Positions 222 to 23,415 of a stretch of 64,000 nucleotides of DNA are shown here, one piece after another. Source of the stretch: Candidatus Gottesmanbacteria bacterium. GTDB lineage: Bacteria; Patescibacteriota; Microgenomatia; UBA10105; UBA927. Position 1 is the first letter of the stretch; every line of letters begins with the position of its first letter. The stretch spans positions 2,489 to 66,488 of the forward strand of contig JACREN010000044.1 of assembly GCA_016218255.1 (NCBI GenBank), read 5' to 3'. Under the pieces are notes generated by a model, which was not told the DNA's origin, did not search any database, and worked only from the letters and a program-made list of their open reading frames with translations. The position numbers and the translations under genes are program-made.

Positions 222-1349
222 TTAAGTCACGCCGAGCAGTTCGCGGATAGAATCGGAAACATACGCGACTTCGCGTTCGCCCAAACAAACACCGCTCGGT
301 AAATTTATTCCTGAATATGCAAGCTCATGCGATACAGAAGTGTTGAATTTTGGTTTTGGATAAATACCAAAATCACTTATGGGGTAAAAAAACGGCCGGG
401 TGTCAATATTTCGAAGCTTTAACGCTATTCGAAGTTCATCACGGCTCAGCCGAAATTTCTTTTCCATGACAATAGAAGTCATCCAATAACTGCTCCGAAC
501 ATCTGTCCTCTCGGGATTCATCGATAATCCTTCAATGGTCCCAAGTCTTGACTTGTACCACGAAAATATCTGCCTTTTTCTTGCTATCAAATCTTCAATT
601 TCTTCAAGTCTGGCCAATCCCAGAGCTGCCTGAATATTTGACATAGGATACATATACCCAATCTCATCATGCCAAAACTGACGCTTTGGATTAATTCCAT
701 GATCCACAAGCGATCTGGCTCTCTCAATCCAGGATTTTTTATTCGTTATCAGCATACCGCCTTCACCTATGGCCAGAAGCTTCGCCCCCTGGAAACTAAA
801 TGCTGCTGTGTCGCTTGTTACTCCTGCATGCTTCCCATTCAGAATACATCCTAACCCCTCGCACGCATCCTCAATGACATACAGTTTATATTTTTTTGCC
901 AACGCCCGTATACCACGCATATCCGCTACGTTTCCGTACAGATGCACCGGCATAATAGCCCGGGTTCGCCTGGTTATATACCGCTCGGCTTTTCTGACGT
1001 CAATGGACCATGTATCACGATCCACATCAACCAGTACCGGTCTGGCTCCCGTATACTGTACAGCATTCGCACATGCGATATAGGTAAAGTCTGGTATGAG
1101 CACTTCATCGCCGGGACCAACGCCAGCAAGAATAAGTCCCATATGAAGTGCACTTGTGCCTGTCGGCATCGCGAGAGCATACGAAGTCCCGACGTACCTT
1201 GCGAATGCTTCTTCAAATTTATATATGTAATCACTGTGATGGAAATTCCATCCATTTTTGGCCGCATCCGTCACGTAAGCTAATTCATGACGACTTATCT
1301 TGGGTCCGGCAGTCAGTATCATTTCGTTGGGCTTCTGCATGCGCTTCAT
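222..1349 (-). CDS. DegT/DnrJ/EryC1/StrS-family PLP-dependent sugar aminotransferase
   Basis: 375-aa ORF. It has the Gly-rich PLP fold signature 'AMPTGTSALHMGL' and the catalytic Lys in 'FSFQGAKLLAIGEGG'. Lys (not His) argues for an aminotransferase rather than an E1-type dehydrase. The real start may be the internal Met in 'MILTAGPK' near 1322. Confidence 0.85.
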   Translation of the reverse strand: MKRMQKPNEMILTAGPKISRHELAYVTDAAKNGWNFHHSDYIYKFEEAFARYVGTSYALAMPTGTSALHMGLILAGVGPGDEVLIPDFTYIACANAVQYTGARPVLVDVDRDTWSIDVRKAERYITRRTRAIMPVHLYGNVADMRGIRALAKKYKLYVIEDACEGLGCILNGKHAGVTSDTAAFSFQGAKLLAIGEGGMLITNKKSWIERARSLVDHGINPKRQFWHDEIGYMYPMSNIQAALGLARLEEIEDLIARKRQIFSWYKSRLGTIEGLSMNPERTDVRSSYWMTSIVMEKKFRLSRDELRIALKLRNIDTRPFFYPISDFGIYPKPKFNTSVSHELAYSGINLPSGVCLGEREVAYVSDSIRELLGVT

Positions 1350-2284
1350 AAATTGATGGTGTTCCGAATAATATATCGCGGCCGGCGCTTTACTTCAAGG
1401 AATATTTTTGCCAGGTATTCTGCTATCACGCTTAAACTCAAAAGCTGGACGCCTCCCAAAAATAAAATAAGAATCACGATAGTCGGTATCCCCCGCGGTG
1501 CATCGCGATAGACAATGATCATGCTTATATTGATTATTATAAGAACCAATGTCATGAGCATGACAAAAAATGCGGTTAATGATATCCATTCAAGCGGTTT
1601 AAATGAAAAATTGATAATGAGAGTTTTTGCCCACCAAAACCCGGACATGAGGGATTCATTTGATCTGCCGGCGTGGCGGGCATCCCTCACATAAGAAACG
1701 CCAATTTGGCGAAACCCCACATACGCCCGAAGACACCGGAGATAATAATCATATTCATCCATAGCCAGAAGCGCTTCCATGGGTTTTCGCCCTATAAGAG
1801 AAAACTCTCCTGCGTCAGGAGGAATGGGAAAATAGGCGAGTTTTTGAAGGAAAAAATAAAATCCCCGATACAGTACGTTCATAAGCGCAGTCGCGCCTCT
1901 TCGTTTCTTTCGTACTCCATAAACGATATCGTACCCCTTGCGCCAATGCAAAATAAATTCACGGATGAGCTCCGGCGGATCCTGTATATCTCCGTGCAAA
2001 AGTACCACTGCTTTTCCCTTCGCATACTGAAGTCCGGCCAAAAAACTTGGCTGGGGCGAACCGAAATTCCGGCTCATGACAATGACCTTTACGCGCCGAT
2101 CCCGCTGGCCAAGAGACGAAAAAATGCTTTCTGACCCGTCCGTTGATGCGTTGTCCACAAAAATAAGTTCAAATTCATACCCCGGTAGGGTTGCAATAAC
2201 CGATTTTACCCGAGTATACATCTCTCGGATATTTCCGGATTCGTTATAACAGGTTACAACAACTGATATAAGTGTTTTTCTCAT
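1346..2284 (-). CDS. Family-2 glycosyltransferase, polyprenol-phosphate sugar synthase type (ArnC/GtrB/DPM1-like) with C-terminal TM helices
   Basis: N-terminal GT-A motifs 'ISVVVTCYNE', 'VDNASTDGS' and 'HGDIQDPP', followed by two hydrophobic C-terminal helices. The ORF track gives 1346..2374. An internal ATG at 2284 ('MRKTLISVVV') gives an ATGA overlap with the upstream gene that ends at 2281. Confidence 0.8.
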   Translation of the reverse strand: MRKTLISVVVTCYNESGNIREMYTRVKSVIATLPGYEFELIFVDNASTDGSESIFSSLGQRDRRVKVIVMSRNFGSPQPSFLAGLQYAKGKAVVLLHGDIQDPPELIREFILHWRKGYDIVYGVRKKRRGATALMNVLYRGFYFFLQKLAYFPIPPDAGEFSLIGRKPMEALLAMDEYDYYLRCLRAYVGFRQIGVSYVRDARHAGRSNESLMSGFWWAKTLIINFSFKPLEWISLTAFFVMLMTLVLIIINISMIIVYRDAPRGIPTIVILILFLGGVQLLSLSVIAEYLAKIFLEVKRRPRYIIRNTINL

Positions 2285-3240
2285 CCGTATTTTTTGTACC
2301 AGGCCAATGTTTTCAAGATTCCTCCACGAAGTGAGTAGTGGGGCATCCACCCAAGATTTTTTATCTTTTCCCAATCAAGGTGCTGATAGGGTATTTCATT
2401 CTTCGAAGTGTTTGCGATAGAATATCGTATTCGCTTATGAAGAATTTTTTCGGTACGCTTAATGAGCTCAATAACTGAACACGACACTTCAGAAGATATA
2501 TTAAACGCCTGTCCTTTAATTTTTCCCATACGTTCTAGTAGAAATACATACGCTCTCGCCACATCACCGACGTAGATATAATCACGTATATATGTACCGT
2601 CGCTTCGTAACACCACAGGAACGCCATGGACCAGACTATTCATAATGCCGGGAATAATTCTACTATTATGCAGATCTCCCGGACCATAAATATTGCCAAA
2701 TCTTGTTATAGCTACAGGAACTCCGTATGTCTGCCAATATGCGTTAGCTATTAAATCAGCAGCGGACTTAGAGACTTCATATGGATGATCACCCCGAAGT
2801 GGATCATCCTCTCTGTAAATTTTTTTCAATTTACCATATGCTTTATCCGATGAAGCAAGTATCACGCCATGGACGCGCGGGGTACGGCGGGCAGCCTCAA
2901 GTATAGAAACCGAACCTAATACATTGGTCCGTATCGCTTCTGCTGGATTTTCATAGGACGTTGTCACGATAGCAGAAGCAGCCAAATGGATAATGCTGTC
3001 TATTTCATATCGAGTCACGACATCAATCACACGATCTGTATCGTTGACATCGCAATGCACACTAATCACTTTCTGATCGAGTTCTTTGGTGATAAAATAA
3101 CTATTAGGATCATGACTCCGGACAGTAGTAACGACTCTATATCCCCTTCCGAGAAGCAATTCAATGACGTGACCGCCGACCAAACCGGTTCCGCCAGTAA
3201 CCAGAACCGTCTGACCCGTCAATCGTTCCATATTTTCCAT
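2281..3240 (-). CDS. NAD-dependent extended-SDR sugar-nucleotide dehydratase/epimerase (CDP-glucose 4,6-dehydratase-like)
   Basis: Rossmann motif 'VLVTGGTGLVGGHV' and catalytic 'YEVSK' (YxxxK). It lies immediately downstream of a glucose-1-phosphate cytidylyltransferase, the usual partner of the CDP-glucose 4,6-dehydratase. Confidence 0.6.
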   Translation of the reverse strand: MENMERLTGQTVLVTGGTGLVGGHVIELLLGRGYRVVTTVRSHDPNSYFITKELDQKVISVHCDVNDTDRVIDVVTRYEIDSIIHLAASAIVTTSYENPAEAIRTNVLGSVSILEAARRTPRVHGVILASSDKAYGKLKKIYREDDPLRGDHPYEVSKSAADLIANAYWQTYGVPVAITRFGNIYGPGDLHNSRIIPGIMNSLVHGVPVVLRSDGTYIRDYIYVGDVARAYVFLLERMGKIKGQAFNISSEVSCSVIELIKRTEKILHKRIRYSIANTSKNEIPYQHLDWEKIKNLGWMPHYSLRGGILKTLAWYKKYG

Positions 3241-3998
3241 TTTGGGTCAGTTTTCCAATACATATTAAGGTTTTCTACATCCGAATATGTGTCCATCGAG
3301 TGCCAAAATCCGCTATGAATATACAGAGAAACCTGACGCTCCTTCACAAGGCGGTGGATTGCTGCGTGCTCATACTCCTCGGGCCGGAGGTAGTTAAAAA
3401 AACTTTTCTTAAATACCATAAAACCGCCGTTTACCCATTCGCGGAGAGACGGTTTTTCAATGAAATCGGTTACAATATTATTTTTATCAACCTTCACCTG
3501 ACCATATTTGCTTCGCGGGTATACACCGGTAATCGTTCCTATGGTATTCTGCTTCTTATGAAAAGAGACGAGTTTTGTGATATCGATATTTCCGACACCG
3601 TCACCGTATGTCACCATAAAATTATCCTCAGTAATATAAGGCTTAATACGTAATATCCGCTCCCCGGTCAGCGTCTCCTGACCGGTTTCAACAAATGTAA
3701 TATTAAAATCGTCAATCCGTTTGTCTTTCTTTCTCAAAGTATGAATTTTCGTTTTACCCGTTCTTGTCGAAAGCGTAAAATCATGCAAAAAATATTTCTG
3801 GTTTAGAAAATAGTCCTTAATCGCATCTCCTTTATACCCAAGAGCAATCACAAAATCTTTATATCCATAATGGGCATAAATTTTCATAATATGCCAAAGA
3901 ATCGGCTTATTGCCGATGGTGACGAGCGGCTTTGGCTTAAACTCCGTCTCCTCTTTTAAGCGGTAACCTATACCGCCGGATAATATTATTGTTTTCAT
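3219..3998 (-). CDS. rfbF: Glucose-1-phosphate cytidylyltransferase
   Basis: 259 aa. N-terminus 'MKTIILSGGIGYRLKEETEFKPKPLVTIGNKPILWHIMKIYAHYGYKDFVIALGYKG' matches the RfbF/DdhA nucleotidyltransferase signature over its whole length. Confidence 0.85.
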   Translation of the reverse strand: MKTIILSGGIGYRLKEETEFKPKPLVTIGNKPILWHIMKIYAHYGYKDFVIALGYKGDAIKDYFLNQKYFLHDFTLSTRTGKTKIHTLRKKDKRIDDFNITFVETGQETLTGERILRIKPYITEDNFMVTYGDGVGNIDITKLVSFHKKQNTIGTITGVYPRSKYGQVKVDKNNIVTDFIEKPSLREWVNGGFMVFKKSFFNYLRPEEYEHAAIHRLVKERQVSLYIHSGFWHSMDTYSDVENLNMYWKTDPKWKIWND

Positions 3999-6116
3999 CT
4001 AAAACAGATCTTCTGGATCCCCTCCGTGATACGGAAATAAAAAGAATATTCTAAATCGTCCGATCACAAATGTACTCTTATTGGCAATACTTTGCAACGG
4101 ACGGCGCTCAGTCAGACGCATATCACCCTCCACCTGATATTTGTTATGCGTTCTGGGTCCTTGAAAAAGTCTCGCAGTAGGCCCTTCATAGAAAAGCTGA
4201 GTGCCATACGGCGGATAGTCGCCAAAAAAATATGGCAGACTGCCCCCAGCAATTGCATTATTTTTCACGATAATCTGATTTTCCTTTTCAAGAAAGGTTC
4301 CTTGTATCGGAATCGCCAACCATTCGCGGAAATTCGGCCACGCGGCTGCTTCTGCCAAAGCATCCTCAACTCCAGCATACCCGCCTAATCGTGGCAATGT
4401 CCGCTGCCACTGGCGCACAGCACGTAAATCGACAGGAGACATCCGCATCATCATTGGAACCCGATCAAACAACTCCTGACCATTTAGCATGACAGTCAAA
4501 AACTGGGTTGCGTTCGGATCCTGTATATCCATGATCAGATACCCATTCAAATCACGCAACCTAGATAACGCTTCGTTTCCCAGGGTAATTTCCTGATGTA
4601 TTTCCTCTCCTTGATTCAATGGTTTCCGCCATTCATGCCAATTCCTGCTTCGTATCTCTGGCGCTATGACAATGGAAATATAGACAATGAGAACACTTGG
4701 TAAAAGTTTCTTCGCCCAGTGATGTGCAATAATAAGCTTTGCGTTGCGATCAATCTTCCAAAGCATCCTCAACGCCCATACAACAATTACTCCTGAGACC
4801 AAAAAATTCACGATCCGCCACACGCGACTGTCAGAAATTAACGGGATTATCCGAAGCTCAATTCCGAGAATATACGGGCCTAATAAAATCCATGACAAGA
4901 AGAGTCCGCACAAACTCAACACCGATTTTCTTGCTGATTGATAATTCCAAAGAAACCGTAACTCCTCTATGCCCGCACCTGCCAACAGCAGTAAAATTCC
5001 CAATACGGGCATCTGATATCGAATTTCCTCCACATAATATAAAGACACGAATACCGTATTCCACAGAATCATTGAACTTATGAGAAGCATAAATCTATGA
5101 CGAAGGGCCGCCCTCGTACCCCACGCTGCCAAAAAAAGTATGCCCGCATGAAGCAGCTGAAGACTCCGCTGGTCCGCAAACGGAAAACTCGTCGCATATG
5201 AATTTGCAGCGTGCCGCCACAACCGGCTTACTCGTTCAAGCTCCAATATAAACAATGAAGCCATATTCTGACGCAATAGTAATCTGGAAAACATATCCAT
5301 CCATCCGGATACTTTGATACCATCCATCCACCATCCGTCTGTTGCCAGCGTATGAGCGTTCATGAATGTACTCGCTATACCGCCAACGCCATAAATACTT
5401 GTGCCGGTAAATGTAAGCATTGCGTTCCATGCAATGACCGGTATTGCGTACCCAGCAATCAGACCATATAGATTTTTTCGCTTGATAGTTCTGTCCATTA
5501 ATAATGGTAGACCGATAAAAAGCATCCCATAATAAGTAAAAACATGACGGATCAAACCCATAATAAATAAAATGAATCCGGCGCCAACGAACCAATAGAG
5601 ATGTTTTTTCCGTAATACAATCCAACTTATGGCAAATACGGTAAGCTGCAACGCTACACCCGTTATCTGTTCCGGCATCCACGAATAGATAAACGCGAAA
5701 AACGGCGTATAAAATGCTCCGACCAAGCCTACAGCAAGCGCAATCCATAGTGGGAACAGCTTCAAGGCGGTCAAAAATAATGCTGATACGAATCCCGCGT
5801 TCAAAATTGGAGCCACGTCGCGTGGTGTCCATTTGGCATTTTCCAGTACCGCAACGTATACGTTATAAAGCGGAGACCCATGCGTGTTTGCACCGGCAAA
5901 ATTATGCTTCAGCGCAGCTATGAATGCGGATTGTTCCTCTATCACAAGTGATCCCACGGCAATGCGCCAAAGGTTGTTTACGGCTATCGCGGCGAGTCGA
6001 TACTCCTTTGCATCTGAAGGTTCGTTATAATCTCCAGTCGCTACAAATTCCAGCCGCACCTGGTATGCAATCCAAAAAAGAAAAAGTGTTATTCCAAGGA
6101 TCAGTATTTTTTTCAT
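3999..6116 (-). CDS. GT-C-type glycosyltransferase, ArnT/PMT-like (GT39/GT83 superfamily)
   Basis: 705 aa with an N-terminal TM helix. The first loop carries an acidic motif 'SDAKEYRLAA' resembling the ArnT 'DExRYA' motif. It also has a 'HGSPLY' element, about 10 predicted TM helices and a C-terminal soluble domain of about 230 aa. Confidence 0.55.
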   Translation of the reverse strand: MKKILILGITLFLFWIAYQVRLEFVATGDYNEPSDAKEYRLAAIAVNNLWRIAVGSLVIEEQSAFIAALKHNFAGANTHGSPLYNVYVAVLENAKWTPRDVAPILNAGFVSALFLTALKLFPLWIALAVGLVGAFYTPFFAFIYSWMPEQITGVALQLTVFAISWIVLRKKHLYWFVGAGFILFIMGLIRHVFTYYGMLFIGLPLLMDRTIKRKNLYGLIAGYAIPVIAWNAMLTFTGTSIYGVGGIASTFMNAHTLATDGWWMDGIKVSGWMDMFSRLLLRQNMASLFILELERVSRLWRHAANSYATSFPFADQRSLQLLHAGILFLAAWGTRAALRHRFMLLISSMILWNTVFVSLYYVEEIRYQMPVLGILLLLAGAGIEELRFLWNYQSARKSVLSLCGLFLSWILLGPYILGIELRIIPLISDSRVWRIVNFLVSGVIVVWALRMLWKIDRNAKLIIAHHWAKKLLPSVLIVYISIVIAPEIRSRNWHEWRKPLNQGEEIHQEITLGNEALSRLRDLNGYLIMDIQDPNATQFLTVMLNGQELFDRVPMMMRMSPVDLRAVRQWQRTLPRLGGYAGVEDALAEAAAWPNFREWLAIPIQGTFLEKENQIIVKNNAIAGGSLPYFFGDYPPYGTQLFYEGPTARLFQGPRTHNKYQVEGDMRLTERRPLQSIANKSTFVIGRFRIFFLFPYHGGDPEDLF

Positions 6117-9055
6117 TGTATCCGCGCAGAATAAACTTCAAGGCTTGAAGGATTCGGAGAGCCGACAACGATAATCTTCCGTAAAATGCTGCCGCTGCAA
6201 TCTAATGCGGTCTGAACCGTTTGTCTTCCATGCTGAAGCGGAAATGAACGAAAGTGCCAAAGCCCCCCAATTAATGTCTTTTGGTTTTGATTCTGTTTAC
6301 TCCAGTCCGCATCCTCCGCGCACACCCAGGCAAGCAACATGGTTTTGTACCGAATAAGCGATGACAATGTTTCCTGTATCGAAAAATCGTTCACATAATG
6401 CCAATTGACCCCCGCAAGTTCAAATATCTTATCCGGAGAGTATTGTCTATTGCTAACCGGCTCAATAACGATCTCATCAAGCGATACAGGTGCGGAAGGA
6501 GTCTGCGTAATAACAATCTTCACCGAACGGTATATTCCAGGTATTACCGTCACCGCATGCATTCCGCCATTATTCGGGCTCCAAGAAATCTTTGTATCCT
6601 CACCTATGCGCCCTATCTTTACGTATGATTCTCCGTAACGCGATCCGTAGACTACGCCCTCTAGCGGCATGCGTTCACTTACCATATTTTTCGGTGTATT
6701 GAGCAATATTCTCCCCACATCTGTAGATTCCGCAAAAGAAAGTATTATCTCTATCGGCAAATTATTGTTTCCTAAATAAAATATTTCATCTGGAGCAGGT
6801 GATGGATCGGAAACAAATACTCCATCGATCAACGATTGCGCACGCACCCGCGCATCGGTTTCATCCAGGCCGGATACAGATGCCCGAATCCCCTGTCGAA
6901 TCAAATCAACCTTCTGGATAGCACGATTGATTTGTATCCGGTCATCCAAATTTATTTCTCCCAGTAGACGATCCTGAAAAGACAGCACAGTGAATGAAGA
7001 AAGGATTTCCTGGATGCTCCTTGCAGCTATCGGCGCGTATTCCTTTATCATCCACCAGAATTGTCCCGGTACGCGAGCTTCTTTTGGAATGATTACCGCA
7101 TCGGAAAATGGAAATTGAACATCCGGCAAAATATTCTGACCGAGAGAAATTTCCAACATCGTTGGCAGGAGCAATCTTTCCCCAATTTCACGGCTTGTAA
7201 GCATCGGGCGCTTTGCCAAATAGAGGGTTCCGTTCGTGTCTATTTTCGTAAATTCCGTCTCGGAAACGGCTTCTTCAAAGACGATGGGTACCGGTATAGA
7301 ATTCTCTTTTTCAAAGAAGATTCTTCTCGCCATCCCGGAAATATTCGCAAACACTGACGTCTCAGGATTAGCATAAAAAGCAAAAAACCTGTCCTTCGTA
7401 TATATGCCGGATTCTATAAGATTGCGGATCTCCCGGACATCATTGCTATAAAATAACTCATCCGTTCGATAAAATCCGTATAGCCACCGCCAGCCGGCAA
7501 CATTGACATCAAGTGCATTCCGGACGGGATTTACGGAATAGATAAGCTTCGGCTTTCCGTCGCGGGGAACCATAGCAAAAAATTTATCGATCAACGCCCT
7601 CTCTTTATTACTGATACCCTCAACTATGCCCCGATGACCCTGAATACTCACCATGCTATTCCCCATCAACACGACGAGAGTTACTATCCATCCGACACGA
7701 CCGAATACGATTCCTTTTTTGCCCCAAAGCCAATAAAGACCCACGCCAAACAGCGTACTCACGCCCACAGCGGCAGCAAAAACATATCTCGCTCCCGGGC
7801 CATACGGAGGTGTTATGCGGGAAAAATAAAACGGAAAAAACAATAAATCGCTTTTTGTAGTGATGTAAAGCGGGACGTAAAACATACTGCTCAAGATCAA
7901 TACGACAGAAAAAACAAGAATTTTCGTCACCCAATGCTGGTTTTTCAACCGAAACAACGCGAGAAAACCGATAATAATAAAGCCGATTAAGGACACCAAT
8001 CCGATCCCATATATCAAATACTGCTCAATAAATGGATTTAACACCAGACTTCCGATCCACATCCGCATGGATGGAAAAGCGCCAATAGCATTTGGCATCA
8101 CCAGTTGAGCCATATAATATGCCAAACGCTCGCTGTAGATATCCCATCGGAACGGAGACGCAACCACAACATTGCTCTTCTTCAATACTCCCTCAAGTAC
8201 TGCAGACCATCCGCCTGGAATAAGACGGATTCCGATAAATCCAAGCCACACCAATCCGATCCCAAAGCTCTCTCCCAGACGCATTATAATGCTGCGTTTC
8301 CGCTTTGCTGGCATCCAGAGGATCGCGAAAAGTCCGAACACCAAACCGGCAATCCGTACAAAACCCATTTTGACTGAAGCGATAAAAAATAGTAATGAAA
8401 GCAGATAATATATACTCGCGCGTTTTTGGGAGTAGCGATAAAGAAAAATAAATGAAAGTATATGAAGACCTAATACCAATGGCATACCCTGGGCATTAGC
8501 CTGCCATGAAAACACATCCAAAAATACCGGTGTAGTGGCAAAATACAATGAAGAAAGGAGTGCAATACTTTTTTTATTACTTATGACAAATACTAAAAAA
8601 TATAAACTCACAGCGGCAAAAATAAACCAAAAAAGAGAAACAATATTGTAGAACCACGCATTTGTACCGAACAAAAGATAAGAAAGTACAAATGACGCGA
8701 ATGGATAGCCGTTTATAATGTAATGGAACGGAAAACCTGCAGCGCCATTAGTAACGGGCGTTAATATAGAAGAGCTGTCTTCGGCAAAAAAATAGTAGCG
8801 GAGAATCAATCCGTGCGCGATAACACCTGCAGTCAGTAGTATTCCAATCTGGATCTTATGCTGAGAAATAGTTCTTGCTATCGGGCGAACGAGGTTGCTT
8901 TGCAATAAAAAAATAACGGCTATCACCATTGGCAACGATTGATCTATCACATAGCTCCACCCGACTCCGATTCGGGACTCAAGCCAAACGTAAAGTCCCG
9001 CATTAAAACTCATTATGCTGTAAAAAATTGCCGCAATAATCCACATTAGCGTCAT
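6113..9055 (-). CDS. Large polytopic membrane protein with a C-terminal extracytoplasmic domain of about 500 aa (GT-C-like, function unknown)
   Basis: 980 aa. The N-terminal ~480 aa are strongly hydrophobic with many helices; the C-terminal half is soluble. It has a 4-nt overlap with both flanking genes. Confidence 0.5.
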   Translation of the reverse strand: MTLMWIIAAIFYSIMSFNAGLYVWLESRIGVGWSYVIDQSLPMVIAVIFLLQSNLVRPIARTISQHKIQIGILLTAGVIAHGLILRYYFFAEDSSSILTPVTNGAAGFPFHYIINGYPFASFVLSYLLFGTNAWFYNIVSLFWFIFAAVSLYFLVFVISNKKSIALLSSLYFATTPVFLDVFSWQANAQGMPLVLGLHILSFIFLYRYSQKRASIYYLLSLLFFIASVKMGFVRIAGLVFGLFAILWMPAKRKRSIIMRLGESFGIGLVWLGFIGIRLIPGGWSAVLEGVLKKSNVVVASPFRWDIYSERLAYYMAQLVMPNAIGAFPSMRMWIGSLVLNPFIEQYLIYGIGLVSLIGFIIIGFLALFRLKNQHWVTKILVFSVVLILSSMFYVPLYITTKSDLLFFPFYFSRITPPYGPGARYVFAAAVGVSTLFGVGLYWLWGKKGIVFGRVGWIVTLVVLMGNSMVSIQGHRGIVEGISNKERALIDKFFAMVPRDGKPKLIYSVNPVRNALDVNVAGWRWLYGFYRTDELFYSNDVREIRNLIESGIYTKDRFFAFYANPETSVFANISGMARRIFFEKENSIPVPIVFEEAVSETEFTKIDTNGTLYLAKRPMLTSREIGERLLLPTMLEISLGQNILPDVQFPFSDAVIIPKEARVPGQFWWMIKEYAPIAARSIQEILSSFTVLSFQDRLLGEINLDDRIQINRAIQKVDLIRQGIRASVSGLDETDARVRAQSLIDGVFVSDPSPAPDEIFYLGNNNLPIEIILSFAESTDVGRILLNTPKNMVSERMPLEGVVYGSRYGESYVKIGRIGEDTKISWSPNNGGMHAVTVIPGIYRSVKIVITQTPSAPVSLDEIVIEPVSNRQYSPDKIFELAGVNWHYVNDFSIQETLSSLIRYKTMLLAWVCAEDADWSKQNQNQKTLIGGLWHFRSFPLQHGRQTVQTALDCSGSILRKIIVVGSPNPSSLEVYSARIQ

Positions 9056-10458
9056 TTATTTTTTGAGTATAATACCAAAGCATCCATACGCATCACTTCA
9101 CGGTAATTCTCTCTCATATACGCCAGAAACGGCCATGTGGAAAGCCCGCGGGGCAAATCCGGATGAGCCCAGTCAAACACAATAGCTGCTGGAGGGTTGC
9201 TAGTAAATACCTTCGTTGTTTCAACAAATGGCTCGAGAATAAACGGCGTAAAATTCGTATATTTATTTGCAGGAAGACGGTCAGACAACAAATAGATCAT
9301 CTCGCTCCCGTAGCTTATAATACGGTCTTGCTTATGCGTATTCTCATTTATCCAGACAGCCATTCTTTTTTCAAAATCCCCCCAGTCAGTCAAATATTGC
9401 TCACGGTGAAAACCGTTATCTCTAACAAAACCATTGTATGCACTCATATACCGTGATACCAACGTCATATATCCTATAAACCCGCACACAATGGATAAAC
9501 GGACCCAAGCAGTGTTCTTTTTATGCAACAAACCACGGATCAAATAACCGGCTGCGACGGAAACAAGAGCAAAACTGGTAAATGTCCGATAGGATAAGTA
9601 TGACGGCAACAAAGACGGAATAAGCGCGACAACAAAAAGTGTCAACAAAATAGCTGTCTTCCGTTGCATCCCCAATTGTTTCCATAAGAAAACACAAGGC
9701 AAAAGAAGAATGCCATATGCAAATTCGATATACAAACCGTCCCCGTGATCCAAAAGAGTGAAATTCCGGTATGGACCAACCACAGTATACAGAGAATAAT
9801 ACAGAAAATCGTACAGTGCTCCACGAAAGAAAAAGTATACCCCTATCAAAATAAACGGAACGGTCAACCCAAAGACATATACAAAGCTGCTCCTCATCAG
9901 ACGACTCATAGATTGCTTCCTAATATATAGATAGAATTGAAAAAACGGCAAGATTAAGACCACAAAAATGGTGTTTTGTTTGGTTGCGACAGTAAAGCCC
10001 GCACATATACCCGCTGCTAATGCCCAAACCGGCCGGTTTGTTAACGCATACTGATGAATCAAGAAAAACAGCAAAAGAACCAATAATCCCACCATTAGTT
10101 CGCCCACTTCCACATTGAGGAAGAGTGGAAACAGAAAGACCAAAAAAAATATACACGCCGGATATACTATCTTTCTGTCAATTCTCTTCAAAACCCACAG
10201 AAATATCGACACCAACAGGCCAAACATTACCCAAATAAATAACTGATACGCTGATCCGCTCGCGCCAAACAGTCTGTACCAAGCTGATAACAAAAACATA
10301 TCGAACGGCATACGAAGCCAAATGATATCCTTATACAGCGTTAATCCCTTTGTCATAAACCAGGGATAAATCACACCGGCAGTCCAAACGTGAAATGGAA
10401 GAAAATATATATTAGCAGTTATCCATAAAAGAGACACGAGATACAACATACCCGCCAT
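9052..10458 (-). CDS. Polytopic membrane protein, paralog of 13104..14486 (GT-C/GT87-like candidate)
   Basis: 468 aa. It shares with 13104..14486 an N-terminal 'ITANIYFLPFHVWT...LYKD' region and a TM 'TKQ(N/T)' element. The start codon is ATG at 10458. Confidence 0.5.
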   Translation of the reverse strand: MAGMLYLVSLLWITANIYFLPFHVWTAGVIYPWFMTKGLTLYKDIIWLRMPFDMFLLSAWYRLFGASGSAYQLFIWVMFGLLVSIFLWVLKRIDRKIVYPACIFFLVFLFPLFLNVEVGELMVGLLVLLLFFLIHQYALTNRPVWALAAGICAGFTVATKQNTIFVVLILPFFQFYLYIRKQSMSRLMRSSFVYVFGLTVPFILIGVYFFFRGALYDFLYYSLYTVVGPYRNFTLLDHGDGLYIEFAYGILLLPCVFLWKQLGMQRKTAILLTLFVVALIPSLLPSYLSYRTFTSFALVSVAAGYLIRGLLHKKNTAWVRLSIVCGFIGYMTLVSRYMSAYNGFVRDNGFHREQYLTDWGDFEKRMAVWINENTHKQDRIISYGSEMIYLLSDRLPANKYTNFTPFILEPFVETTKVFTSNPPAAIVFDWAHPDLPRGLSTWPFLAYMRENYREVMRMDALVLYSKNK

Positions 10459-10498: not shown

Positions 10499-11332
10499 AT
10501 GAACGCAGTGATCTTTACCAGTAGCCATCACATGCTCGCCAATTATATCATTAAGCATTTGCTCTCTATGCATGATCTGAATATCGTTGCGATCGTGGAA
10601 TCCGACGCTGTATATCCGGGCAAAGGAAAGTGGCAGTCGCTTATATTTATGATACGGAAATCCGGATTACAGTATGTTGGATCCCAGATAATCAAATTCC
10701 TTTATTTTCATATCGGAAGCACCCTATACGGCTTCTTTCCCGGCAATAAACCGTCACACATTCTCTATTCGTATCATGAAATAACAAAGACTAAACATAT
10801 TCCTATTTTACTTGAAAAAAATATCAACACACAAACATTCATTACCACAATGCAATCACTCAAGCCTGATCTGTTTGTTTCTATTTTTTTCAACCAGATA
10901 TTCAAAAAAAATGTACTTTCGTTGCCAAAGAGAGGTACTATAAATCTCCATCCGGCATATCTTCCGTCATACCGGGGATTAAGTCCGACATTTTGGGTAC
11001 TTGCAAACGGCGAGCATCATACCGGCATCACCGTGCACCGTATAGACAGTGAGGCAATTGACGCTGGACAAATTTTAGGTCAAATCCGGATCCCCATTCT
11101 TGCACAAGATACGGAATACTCCCTTTATTGGCGATGCGTCCGAATGGGCGTTCCTTTGCTTGAGGATATCATTACTTCAATTGATCGAAACAAACGAAAC
11201 CATGCAAAACCTGATAGCCGCGTTAAGCCTAGCTATTTTTCTCTCCCAAAAAAGTCTGATGTCAATCGATTCTGTGCCCGCGGGAGAAAATTTTTAACGC
11301 TTCGGCAACTCGTCGGTTCCCCGAAGTTTTAA
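10499..11332 (+). CDS. Formyltransferase-domain protein (ArnA-N/Fmt-like sugar-nucleotide N-formyltransferase)
   Basis: 277 aa. 'INLHPAYLPSYRGLSPTFWVLANGEHHTGITVHRIDSEAIDAGQIL' matches the formyl_trans_N catalytic core (N/H/D). It is the only plus-strand gene in the first 21 kb and sits between the aminotransferase genes. Confidence 0.75.
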   Translation: MNAVIFTSSHHMLANYIIKHLLSMHDLNIVAIVESDAVYPGKGKWQSLIFMIRKSGLQYVGSQIIKFLYFHIGSTLYGFFPGNKPSHILYSYHEITKTKHIPILLEKNINTQTFITTMQSLKPDLFVSIFFNQIFKKNVLSLPKRGTINLHPAYLPSYRGLSPTFWVLANGEHHTGITVHRIDSEAIDAGQILGQIRIPILAQDTEYSLYWRCVRMGVPLLEDIITSIDRNKRNHAKPDSRVKPSYFSLPKKSDVNRFCARGRKFLTLRQLVGSPKF

Positions 11333-12016
11333 TGAGGCGATCGTATAAGATATAAACATTGGAATGAATCTTGATTTGCTTTCTCCGTAAGGACGGTTAC
11401 GGTAATATACCGGAATTTCATAAAATGTGCCTCCCGCTTGTTTCACTTTTGTTATTAGCCGCATAAAATAATCTCCATACCCGGCAAATAATCCGGCATC
11501 CGAATTTCCGAGTGAAAGGATAAATTTCCGGTCAACACAAAAAAATCCGCTTAAAAAATCAGTAACAGGAAGATGGAATAACAGTCGAAGATATATATTA
11601 AAAAATCGGCTGAGCCAATACCGTCGCGAGTTCTCCATACCGCCACCGGTAATATACCGCGATCCAATAGCAAGTGTTGCTTTTCGACAAGCCTCACCAA
11701 GCTTCGGAATCACAGATGGATCATGGCTCAAGTCTGTATCCATTACCACGACCTGTTTACCCCTGGCTTTCTGAACACCAAACCATATTGCAGAAGCCAG
11801 TCCCCGCTCTTTTTTTCTGACGAAAACCCGAACTGAACGTTTTCCTCTAAACGCATGTTTACATACCACAGCAGTACCATCAGGACTGCTATCGTCGACA
11901 ACGATAGCTTCATATTTCGCTTTCGCAAACAATGCAGTACGAAAAATGCTCTTTATGAGTGGGATAATATTGCCTTTTTCGTTATAAGTTGGAAGAATAA
12001 CGGAAATATCGATCAT
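11294..12016 (-). CDS. Family-2 glycosyltransferase, DPM1-like polyprenol-phosphate sugar synthase (soluble form)
   Basis: 240 aa with motifs 'ISVILPTYNEKGNI', 'VVDDSSPDGT' and 'VMDTDLSHDP', which are DPM1/Ppm1-type. Its 3' end overlaps the formyltransferase 3' end convergently by 39 nt. Confidence 0.8.
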   Translation of the reverse strand: MIDISVILPTYNEKGNIIPLIKSIFRTALFAKAKYEAIVVDDSSPDGTAVVCKHAFRGKRSVRVFVRKKERGLASAIWFGVQKARGKQVVVMDTDLSHDPSVIPKLGEACRKATLAIGSRYITGGGMENSRRYWLSRFFNIYLRLLFHLPVTDFLSGFFCVDRKFILSLGNSDAGLFAGYGDYFMRLITKVKQAGGTFYEIPVYYRNRPYGESKSRFIPMFISYTIASLKLRGTDELPKR

Positions 12017-13107
12017 ACAACACGCAGAATACGAACTATTTGTTTGCAGATATACCGTATATCCTTTTCTGTCACTTTTGCACTCGACGGTAGGCTCATG
12101 CCCCGATCCGAAATATCATCTGAATTCGGAAATGATTTCTTTTTTTTATACATCGGCAAACGATGCAAGGGTACAAAAAATGGCCTTGTTTCAATTCGTG
12201 CGCGAGCGAGTTCTTCCATAAGATATTTTCGGACCGAACAGGAAGGTAAAAGAATGGAATACATCCAATAAATATTACGTGCCCATTCTATGCCAGGCGG
12301 CAAAACAATCCCCCGAACAGATTTTAGAAGCGTATTGTATAGGGCTGCATGTTTTCGTTTTGCAGTAAGAACGACGTCAATGTGCTCCAATTGCGCCAAG
12401 CCGAATGCCGATTGAAGATTAGTTAATCGGTAATTAAAGCCAATTTCGCTATGCATATATTGTTTCTTCTGATCCTGTGCATGAGCCTTCAGATAGGCGA
12501 TCCGGTCGATAATCCCTTTATTGCCGGATACCACCATGCCTCCCTCACCAGTCGTCATAACCTTATTCCCGTAAAAACTAAAACACCCTACATCACCAAT
12601 GGAACCAACTTTTTTGCCTTTATATAGCGCTCCGTGAGACTCACATGCATCTTCTATTACAAGAAGATCATGTTCCCGCGCAACCGCAAGTATTGGATCC
12701 ATATCCGCGGGATGACCGAACAAATGCGCGACAATAATCGCTTTAGTTTTTTTCGTAATGCTACGTTTAATCGCACCAGGATCAATATTCCATGTCTCCA
12801 TGTTTATGTCTGCTAAAACCGGAGTAGCTCCAGCATAGACAACGACATTCGCTGTTGATACAAAAGTAAAATCCGGTACGATCACTTCATCTCCTGGTCC
12901 AATACCTAAAGCAACCAATGCGAGATGAAGCGCTGCAGTTCCACTCGCAACACTGGTTGCATGAGCCACACCACAAAACTTCGCAAATTTATTCTCAAAC
13001 AGATCGACATACGATCCATGCGATATCCAAGTGGATTTTATACAATCCGTCACGTACTTGAGTTCATTTCCCAAAAGTATCGGTTCTGATGCGGGTATAA
13101 TTTTCAT
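12013..13107 (-). CDS. DegT/DnrJ/EryC1-family PLP-dependent sugar aminotransferase
   Basis: 364 aa with 'ATSVASGTAALHLAL' and the catalytic Lys in 'FSFYGNKVMTTGEGG'. The start is typical, 'MKIIPASEPILLGNELKYV'. Confidence 0.85.
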   Translation of the reverse strand: MKIIPASEPILLGNELKYVTDCIKSTWISHGSYVDLFENKFAKFCGVAHATSVASGTAALHLALVALGIGPGDEVIVPDFTFVSTANVVVYAGATPVLADINMETWNIDPGAIKRSITKKTKAIIVAHLFGHPADMDPILAVAREHDLLVIEDACESHGALYKGKKVGSIGDVGCFSFYGNKVMTTGEGGMVVSGNKGIIDRIAYLKAHAQDQKKQYMHSEIGFNYRLTNLQSAFGLAQLEHIDVVLTAKRKHAALYNTLLKSVRGIVLPPGIEWARNIYWMYSILLPSCSVRKYLMEELARARIETRPFFVPLHRLPMYKKKKSFPNSDDISDRGMSLPSSAKVTEKDIRYICKQIVRILRVV

Positions 13108-14486
13108 AACGTATAAATACCAATCGTGTCAAACTCTTGTTGGAGTGTATAGTTCTGACGCAAAAAGTCAAGGAAACCCCATCCGGAGAGCTCCGGCCAA
13201 TCATCTATCAGTCTCCGGTCGTACACGACCACTTTAGGCGGTTTACTTATCAGCTCTGCAGTGGTCTGAGCAAACGGTAAATAATCAATGGGCATTCCGC
13301 CCACGTACCTGTTAAACGGCAGTCTGTTCGCCCTCATCATTATAATGTTATTTGCCATGTTAAACACTTTTTCTGTTTCTTCGGTGTTATCTCGCAACCA
13401 ACGCGCAGCCGCCAGTTCGTTCTCGCTATAATCTACGAGATATTGATTAGGAGAGAAACCATTATCAAGAATGTATCTTCTATATTCATTGACCGGTCTA
13501 ATGATAGATATCAAAAAAACTATAAAGGCCGAAACAAACAACATCTTTCTGGGGGTATTTCCTTTCGTTTTTATATATGTGTTTGCCTCCAGCAATACGA
13601 ACGCTGCGCCAATACACAACAGTGGAAAAGAGGCGACCAAACGGTATGACCAATACGAGGGTAACAGCATAACAAAAAGTGCCAGTATGAATCCCGATAA
13701 CAAATGTTTTACCTTTGACTGTGAGATACTTGTTCTCGCGATCAACAAAAAAGGCACGAGAATTGCCATATATACGCCTATCATATTCAACGCGGTATTT
13801 ATCCCCCATGCCTTTGCCCACCCTTTGTATATTGTCGCTACAAAAAGAAGACCCTGGATATAGTCATTGAGCGCACCATGAAACCAAAGAAACAGAACAA
13901 CAGCAGCCACTGGCATAAGCACTCCCAGGCTATATAGGCCAATCCATTTCCATCGTTTCCACAAAAAAAGAACCATAACAAGGATCAATACACCCGAAGT
14001 CTGCTTCGTCATAAGGCTTAAACCGGAAAATAGTCCTGCCCAGATAAGCCATATCGGCTTATTGCGCCGGGTTAACTCCCAAGAAGAGAAAAACGTGCAC
14101 AACGCAAAAAAACCAACGAGTATTTCCTCTATCTCTGCGTTTGAAAATAAGGGGAACAAAAACACAATAAACATGCTATAAGCAAGCAGCGCAAGTCTTA
14201 GGGATAATTTCCGGAGATATCCAAACAATAGAAATCCTGTCAGTAGAAATACTACTGCTACGACCAGCTGGTAACTTATTGGATGTACGCCGATAATTTT
14301 ATACACGGCCGCCAGCAGCGATATATCAATCATGCCTCTGTTCCATAGATGATCTCTATACGGCAATAGTCCCCGAAGAAGCAACCATGGCCGATACAAA
14401 CCTTCGGTCCAGGGATAAAAGGGAAGTAAAAAAATATTTACCGTTATCCAGATACTTCCCAAAGCTAAAACGATAAAGGGAATCAT
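13104..14486 (-). CDS. Polytopic membrane protein, paralog of 9052..10458 (GT-C/GT87-like candidate)
   Basis: 460 aa. N-terminus 'ITVNIFLLPFYPWTEGLYRPWLLLRGLLPYRDH' is collinear with the 468-aa paralog. It shares the 'MTKQT' TM element. Confidence 0.5.
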   Translation of the reverse strand: MIPFIVLALGSIWITVNIFLLPFYPWTEGLYRPWLLLRGLLPYRDHLWNRGMIDISLLAAVYKIIGVHPISYQLVVAVVFLLTGFLLFGYLRKLSLRLALLAYSMFIVFLFPLFSNAEIEEILVGFFALCTFFSSWELTRRNKPIWLIWAGLFSGLSLMTKQTSGVLILVMVLFLWKRWKWIGLYSLGVLMPVAAVVLFLWFHGALNDYIQGLLFVATIYKGWAKAWGINTALNMIGVYMAILVPFLLIARTSISQSKVKHLLSGFILALFVMLLPSYWSYRLVASFPLLCIGAAFVLLEANTYIKTKGNTPRKMLFVSAFIVFLISIIRPVNEYRRYILDNGFSPNQYLVDYSENELAAARWLRDNTEETEKVFNMANNIIMMRANRLPFNRYVGGMPIDYLPFAQTTAELISKPPKVVVYDRRLIDDWPELSGWGFLDFLRQNYTLQQEFDTIGIYTL

Positions 14487-22464: not shown

Positions 22465-23415
22465 ATGCAAAAAAGCAGTGTAAATCCGGAGCTGTCCGTT
22501 ATTATTCCTGTTTACAACGAAGAGCAATCACTTCCGATACTGCACAAAGAACTCATTTCGGCACTCGAAAAAATCGGGTACACTTTTGAAATCCTCTATG
22601 TAGATGATGGCTCTACGGATCGCTCCCAAAATATACTCAGACGATTAACAAATCCGCGAGTTCATCTCATTACATTTCGGGCCAACTTCGGCAAATCGGA
22701 AGCACTTGCTGTTGGTTTTAGAACTGTAAAAGGGCGATATATTATCACGATGGATGCGGATCTACAAGATGATCCAACACAAATCAAACTGCTACTCGAT
22801 AAACTCATTTGTGGATATGACCTAGTGAGTGGCTGGCGCGTAAAACGAGAAGATACAAAGACAAAAAAAATCTCAAGCTTTCTTTTTAATAGAGGGACAT
22901 CGCTCCTCTCGGGCGTGAACCTACATGATGCGAATTGCGGCCTGAAAATATTTACCAAAGAAGTAGCGGATCAGATATCGCTTTACGGTGAGCTCCATAG
23001 ATTCATTCCAATTCTGGCTGCCAAAAAGAAATTCCGTGTCGCTGAATTACCTATTCATCACCGCAAAAGAAAATTCGGTGTCTCCAAGTATGGCTGGGAA
23101 CGCGGTTGGCGTGGAATCATTGATTTATTTACCACTCTCTTTGTCACGGATTACGCTACAAAACCTGCACACTTCTTTGGAAAAATTGGACTTCTCCTTT
23201 TCATAATAGGATTTATCATGGACGGATATGTCACCGCTCTAAAAATATTCACCGGCACCACACAGGGAAGAATCCCTCTGTTTCTTGCTGGTATATTGTG
23301 TATGGTCCTCGGAGTACAACTGCTCTCAACAGGACTTATTGCGGAGATGATGACGTACTATTTCCTGCGCCGGAATCCAAAAACCACACCCGGGCACGGC
23401 GGACCTGAACAATAG
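22465..23415 (+). CDS. Family-2 glycosyltransferase, polyprenol-phosphate sugar synthase type (GtrB/ArnC-like) with C-terminal TM helices
   Basis: 316 aa with 'LSVIIPVYNEEQSL', 'VDDGSTDRS' and 'ITMDADLQDDP', plus two C-terminal hydrophobic helices. Confidence 0.8.
   Translation: MQKSSVNPELSVIIPVYNEEQSLPILHKELISALEKIGYTFEILYVDDGSTDRSQNILRRLTNPRVHLITFRANFGKSEALAVGFRTVKGRYIITMDADLQDDPTQIKLLLDKLICGYDLVSGWRVKREDTKTKKISSFLFNRGTSLLSGVNLHDANCGLKIFTKEVADQISLYGELHRFIPILAAKKKFRVAELPIHHRKRKFGVSKYGWERGWRGIIDLFTTLFVTDYATKPAHFFGKIGLLLFIIGFIMDGYVTALKIFTGTTQGRIPLFLAGILCMVLGVQLLSTGLIAEMMTYYFLRRNPKTTPGHGGPEQ

Follow-up and report, generated by a model that had tools for sequence, protein, structure and literature searches.

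The largest gene of the window, as we call the whole stretch of 64,000 nucleotides analysed here, encodes a 980-aa protein that is most likely a GT-C-type membrane sugar-transferring enzyme with an outward-facing sugar-binding module. The gene lies on the minus strand at positions 6113..9055 (stop codon included), starts with ATG and is the longest ORF of the window, the runner-up having 825 aa, as an earlier note on this DNA had said. It is a real gene and not a chance ORF, since the NCBI entry 'hypothetical protein HY948_04650 [Candidatus Gottesmanbacteria bacterium]' is 100% identical to its product and 11 full-length homologues share 29-44% identity with it. An exhaustive profile search placed 28 full-length proteins (>900 aa) among the best matches to the family, and the second round of a word-indexed homologue search with the family profile A1 added zero members. 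Pfam and NCBIfam returned zero matches to the protein at E values up to 10. The protein heads a new Pfam-less family, so far from Microgenomates/Patescibacteria assemblies. The host, Candidatus Gottesmanbacteria, is an uncultured, groundwater-type bacterium; scanning the window for tRNAs and for Rfam families gave no match, and a literature search on GT-C enzymes in CPR or Gottesmanbacteria found nothing relevant.

The assignment to the GT-C type draws on homologues, an AF2 model and fold matches. Built from only 12 sequences, the model reached a pLDDT of 81.3 and a pTM of 0.71, and its best Foldseek match in the PDB was the GT-C enzyme AftD (6w98, E 2e-8), the predicted transmembrane (TM) core resembling solved GT-C enzymes in three dimensions. 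The top 50-60 matches of each Foldseek search were taken up by GT-C and CBM32 structures, with no peptidase or other non-glycan fold among those listed; residues 496-723 and 867-980 (about 350 aa) were covered in these searches as parts of larger models and not as isolated domains. The comparison with AftD/EmbC-type GT-C enzymes carrying large periplasmic carbohydrate-binding domains, proposed in the earlier note, thus gained support, and a peptidase-type match, which would have spoken against it, did not appear among the top matches. The note's other suggestion, a glycan-handling export component, found none. A role as a glycan exporter, polymerase or ligase component (Wzy/WaaL-like), with no lipid-phosphate-sugar transferase activity, would suit a polytopic protein whose outer domain is large and whose gene lies in a locus for polysaccharides, the more so as a flippase or polymerase is otherwise unrecognised in the window. 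However, every membrane-protein match among the best 50-60 was a GT-C enzyme, with no transporter, Wzy or WaaL, and the motif pattern described below also fits GT-C. Because of these fold matches we rejected such a role, which we consider extremely improbable.

Profile comparisons pointed in the same direction. The superfamily profile A3 aligned with the PMT/PMT_2 paralogues of the window over exactly the PMT_2 region (hhalign probability 95.2%, E 2.6e-8), and among the distant relatives P0155, at 26.5 bits, exceeds the Pfam PMT_2 gathering score of 26.1, with P0108 at 26.0. The 980-aa protein itself matched neither PMT_2 (PF13231) nor PMT (PF02366), even at E <= 10. On these three observations, it appears from sequence profiles to be clan-level kin of PMT/PMT_2 and no member of either family. 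Two other distant relatives, P0097 and P0132, have at the N-terminus a GT2 domain that matches polyprenyl/dolichyl-phosphate sugar synthases best. The superfamily of remote relatives comprises about 1000 representatives. The GT-C assignment of the protein thus depends on a predicted model together with transitive profile links.

AF2 helices and hydropathy predicted 13 TM helices in the N-terminal ~472 aa, with the N-terminus inside and the C-terminus outside, and no TM helix beyond residue ~472. This topology falls within the 7-13 TM helices with a cytoplasmic N-terminus that mark GT-C enzymes, and it agrees with the earlier description of about 480 aa of TM helices followed by an extracytoplasmic region of about 500 aa. 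Two extra N-terminal TM helices (residues 1-52, 8899..9055, minus strand, as are all segments of the protein given below; AF2 helices 2-29 and 31-52) precede the canonical GT-C TM1. In most distant relatives the alignment starts only at query positions ~58-70, and positions 38-42 are gapped in about 70 of the 103. In the canonical core (residues 53-472, 7640..8898), TM1 was assigned to residues 67-86 and the outer loop EL1, with two short helices, to residues 87-132, followed by TM2-TM11. The outer loops 279-340 and 393-427 are long, partly disordered and carry conserved motifs. Of the 49 residues in loops assigned to the cytoplasmic side, 15 are Lys or Arg, against 8 of the 146 in loops assigned to the outside. 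Because of this positive-inside bias and an invariant cysteine pair confined to the tail, the 508-aa tail (residues 473-980) is placed outside in the predicted topology.

The conserved residues of the core cluster at its outer face. The motif FFAED (residues 89-93, 8777..8791) stands right after TM1 and ends in the acidic pair E92-D93, a candidate catalytic base or metal ligand by conservation and position. Both positions are acidic in 27 of the 28 full-length members and in 89 of 103 distant relatives. In GT-C enzymes the proposed catalytic Asp generally follows TM1 (PMC11127046), and the position of E92-D93 agrees with this rule. The motif TTPVFLDVFSW at the outer end of TM3 (residues 174-184, 8503..8536) was recognised by its conservation; in PMT_2 proteins the stretch aligned to it is the 'SPWH' region. 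Its D180 is invariant in the 12-sequence alignment and kept in 26 of 28 full-length members, and 54 of the 103 distant relatives have D or E at this position. GFVR, on the outer turn of the TM5/TM6 hairpin (residues 231-234, 8354..8365), likewise stood out by conservation and contributes R234, which is R in 27/28 full-length members, R or K in 90/103 distant relatives and nearly invariant in A3; by analogy with ArnT and PglB it may bind the lipid phosphate. The most conserved motif of the outer loop EL5 is PPYGPGARY (residues 416-424, 7784..7810), which sits in a low-confidence loop of the model (405-420) and whose R423-Y424 are conserved across the superfamily (among the 103 distant relatives, 64 keep R423 and 79 keep Y424). 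The functions suggested for E92/D93, R234 and R423/Y424 are candidate roles, assigned by position and conservation.

Because the acidic pair is conserved, it argues for a catalytic protein over a pure scaffold. The earlier statement that the protein has no recognisable catalytic motif holds for the tail and fails for the TM domain, where an acidic pair occupies the canonical GT-C position. This evidence also bears on the proposal that the protein is an inactive GT-C-fold subunit, a scaffold or acceptor-recognition partner whose tail presents the acceptor glycan to the enzymes encoded on either side (468 and 705 aa). We regard that proposal as very unlikely, given that the acidic pair, R234 and R423/Y424 are conserved over ~1000 representatives in the pattern expected of an active site and that more divergent members of the family are found with no 705-aa gene beside them.

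The tail comprises at least four sub-domains, and a known fold could be assigned to ~140 of its ~500 residues. By AF2 and conservation, a membrane-proximal alpha/beta extracytoplasmic domain (residues 496-585, 7301..7570) comes first; it is common to shorter relatives of ~580 aa (575-615 aa, covering query 1-580) and holds the densest cluster of invariant positions: P497, D499, K503, N509, N513, D516, W524, GFY 527-529, E533, Y536, F560 and N563. A poorly conserved, beta-rich middle region with a long helix at 703-722 follows (residues 586-723, 6887..7300, from AF2 secondary structure and conservation), in which R616 and D652 were noted and which is probably a spacer. Residues 724-866 (6458..6886) are modelled as a beta-sandwich of the CBM32 or F5/8-type-C (discoidin) kind, with the jelly-roll fold of CBM32-type modules, and constitute a putative acceptor-glycan binding module. 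Its conserved loops LxDG (742-745), LNTP (784-787), WSPNNG (825-830) and DE (860-861) were mapped, the first three of which underlie the putative carbohydrate binding. Of 64 distant relatives, 22 match PF00754 (F5_F8_type_C) in the region homologous to target residues 727-852; the target itself has no such match. The A1 profile matched the discoidin repeats of P0143; searching PDB sequences with the target alone, with A1 or with the broad profile A3 returned noise and, for A1, a weak match to the CBM32 structure 4lpl (E 0.034). The tail ends in a family-specific alpha/beta domain (residues 867-980, 6116..6457; AF2, conservation) with the motif CAEDxDWxKQ. The protein has no cysteines other than C912 and C953, both in this domain; they are invariant and, we infer, form a disulfide. 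The earlier impression that the tail is rich in Gly, Asn and aromatic residues did not hold up against the window's soluble enzymes, which have 6.8% Gly, 4.1% Asn and 10.1% F+W+Y where the tail has 6.3, 5.1 and 9.8%.

The genes on both sides are translationally coupled to the 980-aa gene by ATGA start/stop overlaps, read directly in the DNA, which confirms the 4-nt overlaps reported earlier. The upstream gene (9052..10458, minus strand) encodes a 468-aa PMT_2-like GT-C, assigned as a paralogue of the PMT_2-family GT-C at 13104..14486 (31% identity, E 7e-74), and adjoins the target gene in the same order in the closer relatives L002, L004 and L005. The downstream gene (3999..6116, minus strand) encodes a 705-aa polytopic membrane protein, a conserved partner in that the pair is kept in L001, L002, L004 and L005; more divergent members of the 980-aa family occur without it. 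The 705-aa family matched the target superfamily in hhalign at 62% probability (E 7e-5), with YTPFFAFIYSW opposite TTPVFLDVFSW and R190 opposite R234, and the same register recurred at 19% in another match. Against the PMT/PMT_2 paralogues hhalign found nothing. The 705-aa protein is probably a remote GT-C relative, judged from these profile matches. Its AF2 model (6 sequences) had a pLDDT of 43.3 and a pTM of 0.28, and Foldseek with this low-confidence model gave nothing better than E 0.026, with weak beta-sandwich matches only. The earlier note had placed the target between GT-C paralogs. This stands insofar as the 468-aa neighbour is a PMT_2-like GT-C and the 705-aa protein is linked by the 62% profile match, and falls insofar as neither neighbour is a paralogue of the target detectable by BLAST, HMMER or single-sequence hhalign. 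At the single-sequence level the paralogue claim was rejected because A1, aligned by hhalign to the individual sequences of the two neighbours and of the 460-aa PMT_2 protein, reached a probability below 1% each time.

Genes for making and loading a sugar lie close by. A GT2 of ArnC/PgfS/GtrB type (1346..2374, minus strand) is a candidate polyprenyl-phosphate-sugar donor synthase, with matches to Pfam Glycos_transf_2 and to NCBIfam PgfS (E 3.5e-66) and ArnC (E 2.4e-31), both below the curated (equivalog) cut-offs. The genes at 11294..12016 and 22465..23415 are also of ArnC/PgfS/PpgS type, again scoring below equivalog cut-offs. A candidate GT-A/GT2 synthase is thus encoded alongside the GT-C, as in multi-component glycosylation, with the same limit on the scores. 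Pfam and NCBIfam further identified an NDP-hexose 4,6-dehydratase (2281..3240, minus strand) and a glucose-1-phosphate cytidylyltransferase-like gene (3219..3998, minus strand), both of which come after the 705-aa gene in the closest relatives (L002 and L004, 58-60% identity). The operon also contains DegT-type aminotransferases and a formyltransferase, and the sugar-nucleotide genes together with the GT-C trio are conserved in related genomes. Since the window holds at least 17 GT-C-like and at least 8 GT2 genes, any assignment of one donor synthase and one sugar to the target is a guess. YfhO-family genes occur in the same window. No Pfam family of flippases (GtrA, Wzx, MATE or SMR type) was found among the window ORFs of >=150 aa that were scanned, a set that omits 53313..54935, a paralogue of 54932..56554, and leaves intergenic gaps of <=770 bp. 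Several membrane proteins of the window have no Pfam match and are the remaining flippase candidates.

We consider it probable that the 980-aa protein is a polyprenyl-phosphate-sugar-dependent GT-C transferase which uses its CBM32-like domain to bind the acceptor and decorates a cell-surface glycan. Each functional step of the mechanism proposed here is deduced from sequence and predicted-fold features. A modified NDP-hexose would be made in the cytoplasm by the cytidylyltransferase, 4,6-dehydratase, DegT-type aminotransferases and formyltransferase of the operon, loaded onto polyprenyl phosphate by an ArnC/PgfS-type GT2 and flipped across the membrane as a lipid-linked sugar. At the outer face of the cytoplasmic membrane, where the 980-aa protein would work, the lipid-phosphate-sugar would be bound in its TM core, with R234 and R423/Y424 on the outer face as candidate phosphate ligands, and E92-D93, right after the canonical TM1, would activate the acceptor hydroxyl or hold a metal. 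The acceptor, for which a polysaccharide of the cell surface or a glycoprotein glycan is the likeliest choice, would be held by the CBM32-like beta-sandwich (~724-866), and the membrane-proximal alpha/beta domain (496-585) may complete the region around the active site. The coupled 468-aa and 705-aa GT-C-like neighbours probably work together with the protein, either in series or in a complex.

Other acceptors and arrangements were weighed. DUF5667 proteins are encoded near the 980-aa gene. That the enzyme is a GT-C but a protein O-glycosyltransferase of the PMT, PgfM or TMTC kind, modifying Ser/Thr of S-layer proteins, pilins or these DUF5667 proteins with no polysaccharide extension, seems to us rather unlikely. 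A bolder proposal is that the trio of 468-aa PMT_2-like GT-C, 980-aa and 705-aa proteins forms an obligate hetero-oligomeric GT-C assembly line specific to Microgenomates, in which the disulfide-bonded CAEDxDWxKQ domain (867-980) and the 496-585 domain would provide a new glycan-recognition or second catalytic site, and whose product would be a CPR-specific surface glycan built from a CDP-hexose-derived amino/deoxy sugar; this we hold to be a long shot.

CPR/Patescibacteria are uncultured, mostly episymbiotic bacteria with tiny genomes, and to our knowledge their envelope chemistry is essentially unknown and their envelope polymers uncharacterised. Most of the 64-kb window is given to surface glycosylation. 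Reading the protein as a GT-C with a CBM32-type module annotates a 'hypothetical protein' family and ~1000 remote relatives and yields residues to mutate (E92/D93, R234, R423/Y424). The 980-aa family lies outside all curated models and is a candidate new CAZy family.

Among known systems, AftD, the mycobacterial arabinofuranosyltransferase (PDB 6W98), has the same GT-C plus CBM architecture. The likeness does not extend to sequence, since the target shows no sequence similarity to AftD and no match to PF11847 (GT-C_AftD) and so falls outside the AftD family. AftD carries three CBMs, passes back into the membrane after them (TM12-16) and has an acyl carrier protein as binding partner. The target is predicted to have a single CBM32-like module, a soluble alpha/beta domain at its C-terminal end and two additional TM helices at its N-terminus. 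In mycobacteria, AftD uses decaprenyl-phosphate-arabinose as donor. GT136 ORF12, from the three-component pentofuranose addition of Citrobacter youngae O1, combines like the target a GT-C core of ~11 TM helices with a C-terminal periplasmic CBM (PMC11127046). Its CBM binds the unmodified polysaccharide backbone, its catalytic Asp is proposed after TM1, and its partners are a polyprenyl-phosphate-sugar synthase and a flippase (PMC11127046). This likeness is one of described architecture; the 508-aa tail of the target with its four or more sub-domains is much larger, and no MATE or GtrA flippase was found among the scanned ORFs of its window. Compared with the PMT/PMT_2 clan (GT39 Pmt1/2/4 and GT83 ArnT; PF02366, PF13231), the target scores below thresholds, lacks a MIR domain and has a CBM32-like accessory domain instead. 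With the YfhO, GtlB and GacL-type GT-Cs of Gram-positive bacteria it shares the system logic, in which a GT-A enzyme makes the polyprenyl-phosphate-sugar, a flippase follows and a GT-C adds the sugar to a wall polymer on the outside, and for large YfhO-type members extracellular carbohydrate-binding domains have been proposed (PMC8035078); the target differs in having no YfhO Pfam match and a CPR host. Precedents for a GT-C with CBMs are GT136 ORF12 and EmbA/B/C (PMC11127046), YfhO (PMC8035078) and AftD. No new principle is involved, as CBMs attached to a GT-C (AftD, Emb, GT136) are already established and so are three-component glycosylation systems; the kind of enzyme is ordinary, and it is the sequence family that is undescribed in databases.

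The 980-aa protein, encoded on the minus strand at 6113..9055 from an ATG start, is indeed the largest of the window, the next-longest ORF being 825 aa. It is 100% identical to the NCBI entry "hypothetical protein HY948_04650" of Candidatus Gottesmanbacteria bacterium, and since 11 full-length homologues share 29-44% identity with it, the gene is real and conserved. The 4-nt overlaps described with both neighbours were read directly in the DNA as ATGA each time. One ATGA contains the stop codon of the upstream 468-aa ORF (9052..10458) and the start codon of the 980-aa gene, the other the stop codon of this gene and the start codon of the downstream 705-aa ORF (3999..6116), an arrangement which suggests that the gene is translationally coupled to both. 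The earlier note had also called these neighbours GT-C paralogs, and no paralogy with the 980-aa protein was detectable for either flanking gene.

The protein gave no match in Pfam or NCBIfam even at E <= 10, and PDB sequence searches gave none for its membrane part. Only 12 members of the family were found by word-indexed searching of 5.8 billion proteins, and a second round with the family profile as query yielded no further ones. When 1.84 billion representatives were searched exhaustively with a HMMER profile, 976 matched at E <= 1e-3, with 28 full-length proteins (>900 aa) among the best 32. The remote relatives include proteins of ~580 aa covering query residues 1-580 only, proteins of ~800-950 aa with a Pfam F5/8-type-C domain, a few with TPR repeats and two (P0097 and P0132) with an N-terminal GT2 domain. 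Across species-representative genomes, the family was present in Candidatus Daviesbacteria (two copies), in MAGs labelled unclassified "Patescibacteria group" and "bacterium", and in a Gammaproteobacteria-labelled MAG, on 4.7-kb and 8.7-kb contigs whose CPR-type gene order is the same; one homologue bears the label Candidatus Levybacteria. In the MAG "uncultured Gammaproteobacteria", the short contigs CAYIWI010000027.1 (L004) and CAYIWI010000068.1 (L005) each carry the 468/980/705 block, two copies of the trio within one bin, and their 980-aa homologues are 42-43% identical to the window's protein. The simplest explanation is that a Patescibacteria genome was binned wrongly, or that two strains are present. 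Taking the labels and this probable error together, every confidently named member is from Microgenomates/Patescibacteria.

An AF2 model was built from a 12-sequence alignment (mean pLDDT 81.3, pTM 0.71). Foldseek against the PDB ranked AftD first (6w98, E 2e-8), followed by CBM32 modules, STT3, ArnT and EmbB, which supports the earlier proposal of an AftD/EmbC-type GT-C enzyme with an extracytoplasmic carbohydrate-binding module (CBM). The membrane core matched Pmt4 (16.9, 328), STT3B (16.4, 406), Pmt2 (16.2, 335), ALG12 (16.1, 341), PglB (15.8, 389), AglB (15.5, 393), AftA (15.1, 369), AftD (14.4, 399), AftB (14.1, 359) and ArnT (13.9, 371), with the two values of each match in brackets. Among the best 50-60 matches listed per search there was no peptidase, transporter or other non-glycan membrane family, nor did these matches place the tail in a non-glycan family such as a peptidase, which the earlier note had named as evidence against its proposal; the non-glycan entries among the matches listed (APC10/DOC, muskelin, IFT25 and HECTD3) all have the discoidin fold. 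The best-supported reading, which we consider reasonably probable, is a GT-C glycosyltransferase that would act outside the membrane and depend on polyprenyl-phosphate sugars. A protein O-glycosyltransferase would have the same fold and another acceptor, and we regard it as rather unlikely. A role as an export, polymerase or ligase component, which finds no support in the fold, is very improbable.

Thirteen TM helices were assigned by combining AF2 helices, hydropathy and charge distribution, with the N-terminus predicted to be cytoplasmic and the C-terminus outside; K and R account for 15 of 49 residues in the assigned cytoplasmic loops versus 8 of 146 in the outer loops. Most distant relatives start at query position ~58-70, so helices 1-2 (residues 1-52) are an add-on and the canonical TM1 corresponds to residues 67-86. 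The EL1 that follows has 46 residues, no K or R, and two short helices. TM1 is immediately followed by the motif [YW]-F-[WFY]-x-[DE]-[DE] (here FFAED, residues 89-93), both acidic positions of which are filled in 27 of the 28 full-length members and in 89 of 103 distant relatives. The catalytic Asp proposed for solved GT-C enzymes is located after TM1 (PMC11127046), and E92 and D93 may serve catalysis. The protein could instead be a non-catalytic subunit that presents the acceptor, but the conservation of these active-site-like residues argues against this reading, which we hold to be improbable. The outer loops 279-340 and 393-427 are long and partly disordered in the model, yet they hold conserved motifs, notably PPYGPGxRY (residues 416-424) in the latter. 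R234 lies where a TM hairpin turns on the outer side, and 90 of the 103 distant relatives have R or K there, while R423 is kept in 64 and Y424 in 79; by analogy with other GT-Cs, these three residues are plausible candidate ligands of a lipid phosphate.

The tail (473-980) had been described as rich in Gly, Asn and aromatic residues, but comparison with the window's soluble enzymes showed no enrichment. Based on the AF2 model and the conservation pattern, it was split into a membrane-proximal alpha/beta domain (496-585), where invariant residues cluster most densely and which the 580-aa relatives also have, a beta-rich region of low conservation with a long helix (586-723), a beta-sandwich (724-866 in the model) and a family-specific alpha/beta domain (867-980) holding C912 and C953, the only cysteines of the protein and both invariant. 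The Pfam F5_F8_type_C matches of two distant relatives, P0134 and P0066, map to residues 727-852, that is, to the beta-sandwich. This CBM32-like module may hold the glycan acceptor.

Three tandem paralogues of ~540 aa are encoded on the minus strand at 50719..52353, 53313..54935 and 54932..56554 (35-36% identity), with an epimerase/dehydratase gene (52242..53306) placed between the first and the second. The Pfam scan covered 54932..56554, which matched PMT_2 and PMT, and 50719..52353, which had no match. When a profile of 64 superfamily members was compared by hhalign with an alignment of these paralogues (54932..56554 and relatives), they matched with 95.2% probability (E 2.6e-8) over residues 114-271 of the 980-aa protein and over exactly the PMT_2 region. 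At the sequence level, the paralogues are the best bridge from the superfamily to the PMT clan; the distant relative P0155 is itself above the PMT_2 threshold. The GT2 domains fused in P0097 and P0132 best match polyprenyl-/dolichyl-phosphate sugar synthases (PgfS, PpgS, AglJ, ArnC), a Rosetta-stone pointer hinting that this type of membrane domain may use lipid-phosphate sugars.

The surrounding operon encodes two DegT-type aminotransferases, an ArnC/PgfS-like GT2 (1346..2374), a type in which C-terminal membrane helices are typical, an NDP-hexose 4,6-dehydratase, a glucose-1-phosphate cytidylyltransferase-like enzyme, a further short GT2, a PMT_2 GT-C and, on the opposite strand, a formyltransferase. 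No flippase was recognised in the 64-kb window. The gene order 468-aa, 980-aa, 705-aa, cytidylyltransferase, dehydratase is kept in the closer relatives (loci L002, L004 and L005) and the 980/705 pair also in locus L001; in more divergent family members this 705-aa partner is missing. The 468-aa neighbour and a PMT_2 protein are clearly paralogous. The 705-aa neighbour, which has only six homologues, aligns weakly with the superfamily over the TM2-TM6 core (62% probability), pairing its YTPFFAFIYSW with TTPVFLDVFSW and its R190 with R234, and is probably GT-C in nature; both neighbours may form a complex with the 980-aa protein. The 67.8-kb contig also carries, outside the window and beyond its position 1, HY948_04615, a 683-aa partial paralogue of the 705-aa partner (46% identity), so this partner family is duplicated in the genome. 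In the closest relative (L002, 16822-22031), the aminotransferase and GT2 of the window's operon give way, after the trio, cytidylyltransferase and dehydratase, to a TPP-dependent enzyme, two SDR-type genes (Epimerase / adh_short) and a DHQ-synthase-like gene. Genomes apparently differ in the sugar that is made beside the trio.

The window as a whole is a glycosylation island of unusual density, with genes almost all on the minus strand and a uniformly negative GC skew. Of its 21 membrane proteins predicted to be polytopic, at least 17 are GT-C-like (Pfam PMT_2, PMT, YfhO, PTPS_related or weak ALG3 matches, or paralogues of such). GT2 genes number at least 8, and they are joined by several GT4 genes and by numerous genes for enzymes that modify sugar nucleotides. 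YfhO-type loci lie at 41213-42790 (-), 49127-50722 (-), 59290-60915 (+) and 60753-63230 (+); three are paralogous ~530-aa YfhO/PTPS_related-like membrane proteins (30-33% identity) and one, of 825 aa, belongs to the YfhO family. Between the last two calls there is an overlap of ~160 nt, and TTG is the start codon of both, so one start was probably called too far upstream. Similarly, a methyltransferase ORF with a TTG start, probably placed too far upstream, and a GH130/GH43-like beta-propeller ORF (14489-15394 and 15262-16173, both minus) overlap by ~130 nt as listed. A GH130-like protein is unusual in a biosynthetic cluster and may be a phosphorylase-type glycosyltransferase. Small DUF5667 proteins at 21865-22449 (+) and 47857-48372 (-) each adjoin a GT2 gene, as in L001 (3292-3885), and might themselves be glycosylated or act as accessory membrane proteins. 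A 589-aa GDSL-like acylhydrolase (25354-27123, +) and a NodU/CmcH-type carbamoyltransferase (27492-29273, +), both encoded on the opposite strand, suggest O-acyl and O-carbamoyl decoration of the glycan.

The assignment helps to annotate CPR surface-glycan biology and will not surprise a specialist. [quoted passage not shown] The 980-aa protein shares a GT-C core with one or more extracytoplasmic CBMs with AftD, the Emb proteins and the founding member of GT136 (PMC11127046). This architecture is known, yet the protein belongs to none of the family HMMs AftD, PMT, PMT_2 and YfhO; it therefore represents a new family of a known kind of enzyme, for which there has been no model so far. Compared with AftD, it has two more helices at the N-terminus, only one CBM32-type module and a terminal domain of its own with a presumed disulfide, and it lacks the C-terminal membrane module.
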